From: an uncultured Gammaproteobacteria bacterium
GTDB lineage: Bacteria; Patescibacteriota; Patescibacteriia; UBA11705; JABHMO01
Direction of reading: 5' to 3'
DNA: 64,000 bases
Assembly (NCBI GenBank): GCA_964565345.1
Contig: CAZMEQ010000004.1
Span: forward strand, 2,873-66,872
Both the position numbers and the translations under genes were made by a program. Shown one piece after another: positions 2,041 through 2,567 of the stretch. Below the pieces are notes generated by a model that saw only the letters and a program-made list of their open reading frames with translations, was not told the origin of the DNA and searched no databases. How positions within the stretch are numbered: position 1 is the stretch's first letter; each line of letters starts with the position of its first letter.

Positions 2041-2079
2041 CCACACCTAATCACAAGATTACGTGATTAGGTGTGGGGG
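2041..2079. repeat. 39-nt perfect palindromic element (14-bp arms CCACACCTAATCAC/GTGATTAGGTGTGG) flanked by 7-nt direct repeat CGGGCCC
   Basis: The direct repeat copies the 5' acceptor end of tRNA-Ala (2034-2040 and 2080-2086). This looks like an insertion with target-site duplication. Confidence 0.5.
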
Positions 2080-2110
2080 CGGGCCCAAGTATTATTGAGC
2101 TACTAGCCAT

Positions 2111-2377
2111 CTATTGGTTTAAAGATCTTTGAATTCTTAGCCTAAGTTGATTCCAAGCGTTGGCTCTGAGTTTAAGGTTGTGTTCTCGCTGAAGCGCTTC
2201 TTCTTTTGTCCTGTAGGCTTCAAAATAAACTAATTTGTAGGGAATATAGGGTTTGGTCGAAGGAACATTTCCTTCGTTATGCTTTGCTAATCGTTTGTTT
2301 ATATCAGATGAAAAGCCAAAGTAAAGATGATCACTTTTGATGCTTTTAATTATATAAAGATAGTAGAACATATCCAA
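2111..2377 (-). CDS. GIY-YIG nuclease family protein (small, UPF0213-like)
   Basis: 88 aa. Motifs YYLYIIKS...LYFGFSSDINKRLAKHN match the GIY-YIG core. Direct repeats GGTGTKGGGGCGGGC flank it at 2071-2087 and 2419-2434. Confidence 0.75.
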   Translation of the reverse strand: MDMFYYLYIIKSIKSDHLYFGFSSDINKRLAKHNEGNVPSTKPYIPYKLVYFEAYRTKEEALQREHNLKLRANAWNQLRLRIQRSLNQ

Positions 2378-2567
2378 CGTGATTAAATAATAGCAAAAAG
2401 CATCAATTGGGTCAATATGGTGTTGGGGCGGGCGTAATAATCATCAAAATTACGGTTTTAGGTGTTTCTAGATAAAGATAGTTTTCTTTTGTAAATAGTT
2501 GTTGAGCGTCATCAACAGTTTTTATTGTCTAAATTTAGGCTTTAAAGCAGAATTTTGATTATTGGTA

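Follow-up and report, generated by a model that had tools for sequence, protein, structure and literature searches.

A single-domain GIY-YIG nuclease gene beside a tRNA-Ala gene is one copy of a Patescibacteria-wide inverted-repeat cassette

Introduction

What kind of genetic unit is the short GIY-YIG nuclease gene that lies next to a tRNA-Ala gene in a 64,000-nucleotide stretch of contig CAZMEQ010000004.1 (assembly GCA_964565345.1), from an uncultured member of the Patescibacteriota? This whole stretch, which we call the window, is AT-rich, with approximately 37% G+C and a few G+C-rich stretches. One of these begins near position 2640, and the gene lies between it and the tRNA-Ala gene (1965–2040), as a preliminary description of the same DNA had noted. 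That description took the gene for a small mobile cassette of the homing-endonuclease type, bracketed by direct repeats. We find that the gene is one copy of an approximately 0.3-kb cassette that occurs throughout the Patescibacteria and in which a single-domain GIY-YIG gene sits inside an inverted repeat of about 20 bp. The copy in the window is old, rearranged, partly decayed and vertically inherited. Judged by its sequence, the cassette looks like an undescribed relative of the pairs formed by Ssn nucleases and their hairpin repeats.

The gene lies inside an inverted repeat at unrelated loci

The open reading frame (ORF) runs from 2111 to 2377 on the minus strand and, if read from a TTG at 2377, encodes 88 amino acids (aa). 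The frame and the domain given in the preliminary description stand, with a Pfam E-value of 1.6e-15, but an ATG at 2371 is the likelier start, since the resulting 86-aa protein is identical to a database protein (P0001) and has the length of close homologs. The two features from which the argument starts are:

1965..2040, minus strand: tRNA-Ala, anticodon UGC (ARAGORN; Rfam tRNA, 57 bits)
2111..2371, minus strand: GIY-YIG nuclease gene, 86 aa (Pfam PF01541, E 1.6e-15, residues 5–74), with its TAG stop codon at 2111–2113

The catalytic domain fills the protein, in which Pfam finds no domain besides GIY-YIG, and the family alignment shows no variation in the catalytic Tyr, Arg and Glu columns. 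NCBIfam offers no family name for the 86-aa protein. This nuclease is the only ORF of the cassette; no DDE, HUH, serine or tyrosine transposase or recombinase is encoded.

A homolog scan with one genome per species gave 378 relatives, and we inspected the best 80 loci of the 378. The set of cassette loci analyzed here comprises 82 homologous loci (approximately 378 kb, with 89 tblastn matches counted), drawn from many Patescibacteria lineages and from a few bins labelled Omnitrophota, Elusimicrobia, Cloacimonadota and others. Although homologs at 56–63% identity have quite unlike genes around them, GCCCCCACACCTAAT stands upstream and ATTAGGTGTGGGGGC downstream of each. In 50–55 of the 82 loci the gene lies inside an inverted repeat of about 20 bp, which reads ACCCCCACACC... 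before the ATG and ...GGTGTGGGGGT over the stop codon, and both canonical arms are present with at most one mismatch at 42 of the 89 tblastn matches. The C-rich arm consists of (A)CCCCCACACC and a variable inner half and ends 2–30 nt upstream of the ATG. At the other end of the gene, the stop codon is often the TAG of TTAGGTGT, and the G-rich arm either overlaps this codon or comes directly after it. Gene and arms recur together in unrelated surroundings, at dozens of loci, and the earlier view of a small repeat-bounded cassette is borne out.

An unbiased search for the best inverted repeat between the flanks returned the variants ATGCCACACCTC/GAGGTGTGGCAT, GCCCGCACACCATTTGAGT/ACTCAAATGGTGTGCGGGC and GGCACCACACCAA/TTGGTGTGGTGCC. 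To score complementarity, loci were anchored on the CACAC core of the arm and 22 arm positions were compared, with a cut-off of at least 14 complementary positions. Fifty loci passed, with Watson-Crick pairing at 909 of their 1100 position pairs. Variation is concentrated in the inner half of the arm, which nonetheless stays paired and thus shows compensatory changes, and there is almost none in the outer half. Within 150 nt of the genes there are 101 occurrences of the 8-mers CCCCACAC and GTGTGGGG, compared to 20 in the remaining 350 kb or so; their orientation is strict, with 48 C-rich copies upstream and 43 G-rich copies downstream (7 and 3 in the reverse arrangement). Measured against the usual descriptions of insertion sequences and miniature inverted-repeat transposable elements, terminal inverted repeats are present, with arms of about 20 bp in the family and a hairpin of 18 bp in the window. 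The 53 single matches to CCCCCACACCTAAT in viral contigs all lacked a partner arm within 600 nt, and all lacked a GIY-YIG gene; we regard them as chance matches that point to no phage carrier.

Cassettes beside or inside stable-RNA genes, with target duplications

In six of the 82 loci the cassette interrupts a 16S rRNA gene, with which it shares its strand, at 70–100 nt from the 5' end of the gene. From the conserved 16S sequence around them, these insertions seem to be placed in the V1 hairpin, and by Rfam they are not introns. Among the 35 tRNA genes in the 378 kb, 20 lie within 400 nt of a GIY-YIG gene, and eight tRNAs lie 17–36 nt downstream of a GIY-YIG gene on the same strand. All 14 rRNA and immediately downstream tRNA neighbors are on the strand of the gene, as in the window.

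The tRNA junctions share one design. The left flank consists of a target copy, two or three C residues and the C-rich arm; the right flank consists of the G-rich arm and the tRNA. The duplicated target is the first 7 or 11 nt of the tRNA:

L012, tRNA-Tyr: duplicated target GGGGCGTG
L038, tRNA-Ala: duplicated target GGGCCTG
L029, tRNA-Ala: duplicated target GGGCCGTTAGC
L068, tRNA-Ala: duplicated target GGGCCCATAGC
L083, tRNA-Glu: duplicated target GGCCCCA
L028, tRNA-Arg: duplicated target GCCCCYG

At L028 the outer arm pair is GGC/GCC, which fits tRNA-Arg, instead of the usual CCC/GGG. Two further loci vary the design: at L065 the arm is built on the 3' end of a tRNA-Phe and that end is duplicated on the far side, and at L003, which has no tRNA, GGGGCTTGC stands on both sides. 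We tested 55 loci for an abutting direct repeat of at least 6 nt under position constraints, permuting the flanks 2000 times. Such a repeat, 6–11 nt long, was found in 11 of the 55 loci against 0.34 expected, and none of the 2000 permutations reached 11. The variable length of the duplications is unusual for a single transposition mechanism.

The window copy is rearranged and carries a later, empty palindrome

The junctions in the window contain the following features, called from tRNA searches with ARAGORN and Rfam, Pfam domain searches, computed single-stranded DNA (ssDNA) and RNA folds, and reading of the sequence:

2034–2040, minus strand: tRNA-Ala nt 1–7, GGGCCCG (CGGGCCC on the plus strand), the right copy of a 7-nt direct duplication (T2)
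2037..2080, no strand assigned: perfect 18-bp hairpin GCCCCCACACCTAATCAC / GTGATTAGGTGTGGGGGC with an 8-nt loop, arms 2037–2054 and 2063–2080, 100% complementary
2070..2084, plus strand: left copy of the direct repeat, GGTGTGGGGGCGGGC, composed of the last part of the G-rich arm, GGG and a piece of T1, in this order
2080..2086, minus strand: upstream copy of tRNA-Ala nt 1–7, GGGCCCG on the gene strand (T1), read from the sequence
2096..2108, minus strand: GGCTAGTAGCTCA, a decayed version of the 5' end of tRNA-Ala (GGCCCGTAGCTCA), located immediately after the stop codon and conserved in the orthologous locus L090
2387..2415, minus strand: sigma-70-like promoter, TTGACC-17 nt-TATTAT with an upstream TG (10 of 12 positions), between the upstream arm and the ATG
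2417..2433, minus strand: degenerate upstream C-rich arm with a partial target copy, GCCCG-CCCCAACACCAT on the gene strand, containing the right copy of the direct repeat (2419–2433)
2445..2465, minus strand: degenerate second copy of the inner arm and loop, ACACCTAAAACCGTAATTTTG on the gene strand against ACACCTAATCACGTAATCTTG at 2054–2074 (81% identity)

On the plus strand the order is CGGGCCC (2034–2040), a 39-nt palindrome (2041–2079) and CGGGCCC again (2080–2086). The palindrome is a separate, empty copy of the motif, inserted at the tRNA-Ala gene with a 7-nt duplication. One arm of the hairpin at 2037–2080 is made of the tRNA-Ala leader and tRNA nt 1–4, so that the hairpin overlaps the tRNA. 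Folded as ssDNA, it reaches −22.3 and −22.5 kcal/mol on the two strands, with z about −7. In the RNA fold, T1 pairs with the 3' acceptor strand of tRNA-Ala, and a 19-bp hairpin occupies tRNA nt 1–4; that T1 can pair in this way attests to the exactness of the duplication. A role for the hairpin as a terminator was considered and rejected, as no T-run follows it and a terminator scan did not call it. Rfam searches of the whole window at gathering thresholds, and of 1900–5000 at E ≤ 1, returned only tRNA, besides chance miRNA-like matches.

The direct repeat of the preliminary description is real, although its boundaries (2071–2087 and 2419–2434) were off by 1–3 nt. The 15-mer GGTGTKGGGGCGGGC has exactly two sites with no mismatch, 2070–2084 and 2419–2433 on the plus strand. 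With up to three mismatches there are seven matches against 1.21 expected, and none of 100 shuffles reaches seven; one inexact match, at 2033–2047 on the minus strand, is the tRNA-Ala leader with the tRNA 5' end. At 77% identity the direct repeat can be followed over 26 nt. A second module of 21 nt (2054–2074 and 2445–2465, 81% identity) is repeated in swapped order. The TTAGGTGT motif is found at 2043–2050 (minus), 2067–2074 (plus), 2458–2465 (plus) and 17799–17806; in total the window has six matches against 1.9 expected, four of which adjoin its two GIY-YIG genes.

What the direct repeat represents is clear from the family. Both copies are the same left-end module, a target copy, CCC and the C-rich arm; one is part of the gene cassette, and the later, gene-less palindrome carries the other. 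The family is organized by an inverted repeat, and the left copy is the right arm of an 18-nt inverted repeat, so the direct symmetry first proposed does not hold. The sequence at 2417–2433 matches the left-end module of the family and is absent or decayed in the orthologous loci L090 and L091. The tRNA-like sequence at 2096–2108 appears to be what is left of the original right junction of the cassette, a G-rich arm followed by the tRNA. The window copy consists of a decayed upstream arm, a promoter, the ORF, a decayed right junction and the empty 39-nt palindrome. A tandem arrangement resembling the tRNA 5' remnant at 2096–2108 is seen at L074, where a decayed tRNA-Glu-like sequence with an internal insertion directly follows the cassette (2776–2900) and an intact tRNA-Glu lies at 2930–3002.

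Orthologous loci were found through the left-hand neighbor of the cassette, a 425-aa protein with a weak, sub-threshold match to Pfam PHP_C; exact-protein look-ups with the two left-hand neighbors returned no record. The junctions of the window, L090 and L091 were read by eye, the MAFFT alignment having misplaced L091 across a deletion. L090, the closest of these loci (neighbor 88% identical), has the tRNA-Ala, the same hairpin and duplication, and a GIY-YIG ortholog that is 72% identical; nothing in it resembles the right repeat copy. L091 (neighbor 79% identical) has the tRNA-Ala, a promoter region 90% identical to window 2372–2419 and the G+C-rich stretch, and retains AGGTGTG as a trace of the upstream arm, but has no ORF. 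Orthologous loci, then, do not always contain the gene. Another locus, L001, comes from a different sample and has the same arrangement as the window, with single-base differences inside the motif. The promoter at 2387–2415 is kept in L090 and in the ORF-less L091; because of the latter it probably drives the tRNA-Ala as well as the GIY-YIG gene, and the two would be co-transcribed. L090 also differs from the window by approximately 4.4 kb of extra DNA (8691–13076) between a small basic ORF and the tRNA-Ala.

These junctions bear on the idea of a classical, free-standing homing-endonuclease cassette, with the 15-nt direct repeats as its ends, that spreads by cutting empty alleles and by recombinational repair. 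The T4 Seg proteins and I-TevI have 200–250 aa and a separate DNA-binding domain, and cut double-stranded DNA. The window protein shares their GIY-YIG catalytic domain but consists of it alone (residues 5–74 of 86 aa), with no separate DNA-binding domain, and is closer to the single-domain Ssn nucleases, so the homing-endonuclease label does not suit it. It is true that the direct repeat is non-random, that the gene is absent from one related locus and that GIY-YIG homing endonucleases occur in tRNA gene clusters, T4 SegB being an example (PMC2330249). However, L090 has the gene without the right repeat copy, and the deletion in L091 takes the ORF only and leaves the promoter and the 3' flank, so it ends elsewhere than at the repeats, which are neither the boundaries of the cassette nor a target duplication around the gene. 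In addition, the ends of the family are inverted rather than direct repeats, and its members occupy many unrelated sites, so there is no conserved allele to home into. We consider a homing cassette of this kind distinctly unlikely.

A plainer account would have an ordinary housekeeping gene next to a hairpin that either serves tRNA-Ala expression or ends transcription of the upstream gene, the repeats being local duplications without further meaning. The hairpin is indeed very stable, and its place in L091 is taken by a hairpin of unrelated sequence, which likewise pairs with tRNA nt 1–4. Against this, dozens of loci that have no tRNA show the motif on both sides of a homologous gene, the motif is found almost only beside GIY-YIG genes, and the T-run expected after a terminator hairpin is absent. 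This account is scarcely credible. The L091 hairpin itself (14560–14595, CCCTAAAGTACATGC / GCATGACTTTAGGG) stands at the 5' edge of the tRNA-Ala and is preceded by GGGCTTGCCC; its architecture is that of the window and its arms are different.

Gene-less copies of the motif

Empty hairpins with the same arms occur both near and far from the genes (L048 1912–1940, L069 2075–2105, L080 1222–1255 and several in L054). Folded as ssDNA, these gene-less hairpins reach −12 to −21 kcal/mol, with z of −5 to −7. The window hairpin at 2037–2080 is a gene-less copy of this kind. Longer gene-less units were also seen. L044 has two nearly identical units of approximately 107 nt bounded by the arms (1765–1868 and 2157–2268), one on each side of its GIY-YIG gene, in the manner of miniature derivatives of a mobile element, and these form the only near-identical repeat pair seen among the loci. 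A 135-nt unit bounded by the same arms lies at 2306–2441 of L034. The units of L044 and L034 have AT-rich interiors.

The cassette resembles Ssn nucleases and their hairpin repeats

The Ssn family comprises single-domain GIY-YIG proteins of approximately 94 aa (CDD cd10448) that cut only ssDNA, next to an NTS/SRM hairpin repeat (Chenal et al. 2025, Nat Commun, PMC11893778). RNA is not bound by the protein, whose substrates are the hairpins beside its gene in single-stranded form. Hairpin repeats adjoin 71% of Ssn genes, and 42% of the genes are flanked on both sides. The authors compare this arrangement to insertion sequences and to REP/RAYT pairs, and whether it is mobile is a question that they leave open. 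RefSeq representatives make up their genome set, and Patescibacteria are not mentioned (PMC11893778).

The window gene resembles these systems in several respects. Its product is a single-domain GIY-YIG protein of 86 aa, well below 150 aa; the gene is flanked by its own hairpin-forming inverted repeats, with the perfect 18-bp hairpin downstream and a degenerate arm upstream; and copies of the repeat without the gene occur elsewhere in the genome. A homolog on a Rhizobium plasmid has CGTCATCCCAGGGCTTGACCCTGGGATCC hairpins on its flanks, in agreement with the published SRM pattern, and the window protein aligns with it over the full length at 33% identity (pairwise E 3e-14). The differences are equally clear. 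The motif of the cassette is ACCCCCACACC.../...GGTGTGGGGGT; its gene usually lies inside one split hairpin, whereas an Ssn gene lies between two complete hairpins; its copy number is low, with no genome-wide expansion; it is located in rRNA and tRNA genes, with target duplications; and its protein has no C-terminal NPxWxDL tail. What is new with respect to Ssn is thus the motif, the split-hairpin geometry, the preference for rRNA and tRNA genes and the target duplications. A literature search found no description of the motif, the tRNA-edge location or the duplications.

Three other kinds of element invite comparison. REP/RAYT pairs (REPtrons) and IS200/IS605 elements likewise have a nuclease gene between cognate inverted palindromic repeats, with hairpins presumably recognized as ssDNA, but their enzymes are of the HUH/Y1 type, whereas the cassette enzyme has the GIY-YIG fold and its repeats are not high-copy. 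IS200/IS605 elements, unlike the cassettes, are not known to make target duplications. The intervening sequences of rRNA that are removed by RNase III also consist of a stem-loop that replaces the tip of an rRNA helix, sometimes with a small ORF, and are tolerated in single-copy rRNA genes; the cassette differs in that it also occurs at tRNA edges and in intergenic regions, and encodes a nuclease with a conserved cognate arm.

Closest in setting are insertions in the rRNA genes of the Candidate Phyla Radiation (CPR). Brown et al. reportedly described, in 2015, non-intron insertions in CPR rRNA genes that encode GIY-YIG proteins. The six family members inside 16S rRNA genes of CPR bacteria, non-intron by Rfam, are similar, but the window copy adjoins a tRNA gene and lies outside any rRNA gene. 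Tsurumaki et al. (2024, PMC11270868) report GIY-YIG ORFs in CPR rRNA-gene insertions that resemble neither group I nor group II introns; a bounding inverted repeat (a term absent from the main text), insertions at tRNA edges and target duplications are not described in the passages found by term search. A LexA/SOS-box idea, taken from a paper in which GIY-YIG and Patescibacteria are both mentioned, was also considered and rejected, as that paper concerns a different protein (COG0847) and a different motif.

What the hairpin may do in DNA and in RNA

We propose one explanation that joins the cassette family described above with Ssn-like recognition of hairpins and with removal of the stem from RNA precursors, and put its probability at roughly 0.6. 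By analogy with Ssn, the protein would probably recognize the arm hairpin in ssDNA and cut nearby, and this recognition and cutting would underlie the spread or maintenance of the cassette and of its gene-less derivatives. By analogy with rRNA intervening sequences, the stem of about 20 bp, once in RNA, would probably let the host excise the insertion from rRNA and tRNA precursors in an RNase III-like manner, so that insertions in stable-RNA operons could be tolerated. The ssDNA and RNA parts of this proposal are mutually compatible.

The RNA part could also be taken as the whole story: the element would act only in RNA, as a processing or regulatory stem cut by an RNase III-like enzyme, with the GIY-YIG protein a host or passenger nuclease and the direct repeats by-products. 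The arms lie tightly at the 5' untranslated region and over the stop codon, in strict orientation to the gene, and the 14 cassettes that adjoin or interrupt an rRNA or tRNA gene all share the strand of that RNA gene. The stem appears to replace the V1 hairpin of the 16S rRNA, the outer arm adapts to the first nucleotides of the tRNA (GGC/GCC at the tRNA-Arg of L028), and the tRNA-Ala promoter is upstream of the ORF and is kept in the ORF-less L091. GIY-YIG-encoding non-intron insertions have, moreover, been reported in CPR rRNA genes (PMC11270868). However, the outer arm CCCCCACACC is conserved across phyla far beyond the needs of a stem, gene-less hairpins exist away from RNA genes, and G.U-compatible mismatches are not in excess. 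The abutting target duplications point to insertion events in DNA, and the Ssn relatives act on hairpins as ssDNA, with no RNA binding (PMC11893778). We regard an element that acts in RNA only as improbable; action in RNA could coexist with the combined explanation but not replace it.

Several observations weigh against the combined explanation or parts of it. The two types of arm mismatch are equally frequent (35 G.T-type and 34 C.A-type) and thus indicate neither the strand nor the nucleic acid that folds. The inverted repeat is not recognizable in about a third of the family loci. In 691 kb of related DNA that was collected with an unrelated anchor gene, the 8-mers that mark its arms occur only eight times; the motif is rare and so is not a high-copy dispersed repeat. 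The SRM pattern HGTCWYN(0-2)YYVSBRHN(0-5)WNVSBRGN(0-2)RNCYNB has no match in the whole window, with five matches in 1.6 kb of the Rhizobium locus as a positive control, from which we infer that the cognate motif differs and is not SRM. The solved structures closest to the window protein by sequence are the UPF0213 proteins 1zg2 and 1ywl, which are likewise the best Protein Data Bank matches of the SRM-flanked Rhizobium homolog. As for mobility, the cassette has no recombinase or transposase, and a GIY-YIG nuclease alone cannot join DNA. The two GIY-YIG genes of the window share only 28% identity and so give no sign of recent mobility. The cassette is vertically inherited in L090, at 72% amino-acid identity, and L091 looks like the loss of the ORF alone rather than a never-occupied site, since it retains its promoter and 3' flank together with a remnant of the upstream arm. 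Among the loci examined there was no never-occupied site and no near-identical or recent second copy of the gene. The mobility suggested in the preliminary description is partly upheld, by insertion footprints (7 nt in the window, and the 11 of 55 loci).

A stronger version holds that the cassette is, or was, an autonomous mobile element of approximately 330 bp, which would place it among the smallest known in prokaryotes. Its only protein, the 86-aa nuclease, would act on ssDNA and recognize the hairpin of the element itself; hairpin loops and the 5' edges of stable-RNA genes would be the insertion sites of the element and would be duplicated as targets; and cutting of the stem from precursors would make it harmless. 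This version is tentative, and we think the odds are against it. If true, it would give the Ssn family a function in mobility, on which its discoverers have so far only speculated.

The combined explanation would extend the pairing of nuclease and hairpin into the CPR, with a new conserved motif and geometry, and the different cognate sequence would be useful for ssDNA tools. Duplications of tRNA nt 1–7 or 1–11 provide sequence evidence that such modules insert into DNA. The explanation also offers an account of the non-intron GIY-YIG insertions in CPR 16S rRNA, whose stem would be removable at the RNA level. A practical consequence for annotation would be that perfect hairpins fused to tRNA genes, and short copies of tRNA 5' ends, are read as footprints of this element in these genomes and not as assembly errors.

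The second GIY-YIG gene and other features of the window

The window has one further cassette:

17422..17832, minus strand: second cassette, with a 109-aa GIY-YIG gene at 17440–17769 (Pfam E 6.9e-12)

This gene is bracketed by a 35-nt inverted repeat (17422–17456 and 17798–17832), the distal arm of which overlaps the stop codon. The CCCCACACCTAA motif of the family of the first gene is nested in the upstream arm, at 17799–17812. The second protein is 44% identical to the SRM-flanked Ssn homolog of Rhizobium (E 4e-25). After the gene, on the plus strand within 17413–17935, there are two tandem units of approximately 70 nt that begin with GCTAGCGGTTTGCGTCGT, each with a hairpin.

The G+C-rich stretch beyond the first cassette covers about 2.2 kb (2568–4900), with up to 56% G+C against the background of about 37% and no ORF longer than 89 aa. 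It starts after a strong sigma-70-like promoter, TTGACA-17 nt-TAGGAT (2568–2596), that is conserved in L090 and L091, and contains three hairpin modules, GGTCGCGCG..CTAAGNAGTTGAG, at 3389, 3941 and 4275. The stretch is 68–80% identical in L090 and L091. Rfam gives nothing for it even at E ≤ 1; a large structured RNA is one possibility.

On the other side of the tRNA-Ala, the minus strand of 1403–1540 encodes a 45-aa basic ORF rich in Lys and Ala, with 27-nt tandem repeats as its building blocks. Its conservation in L089, L090 and L095 is 98%, and it may be a small histone-like or ribosome-associated protein. Further stretches of 48–57% G+C, compared to 37% for the genome, lie at 10000–12000, 13000–14200 and 26000–30400, and may be acquired DNA or non-coding. 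Some of them encode an MFS transporter, a beta-lactamase-fold protein, NDK and a DAGK-like kinase, and at 13106–14209 and 29734–30417 there are long overlapping ORFs on both strands with no Pfam match.

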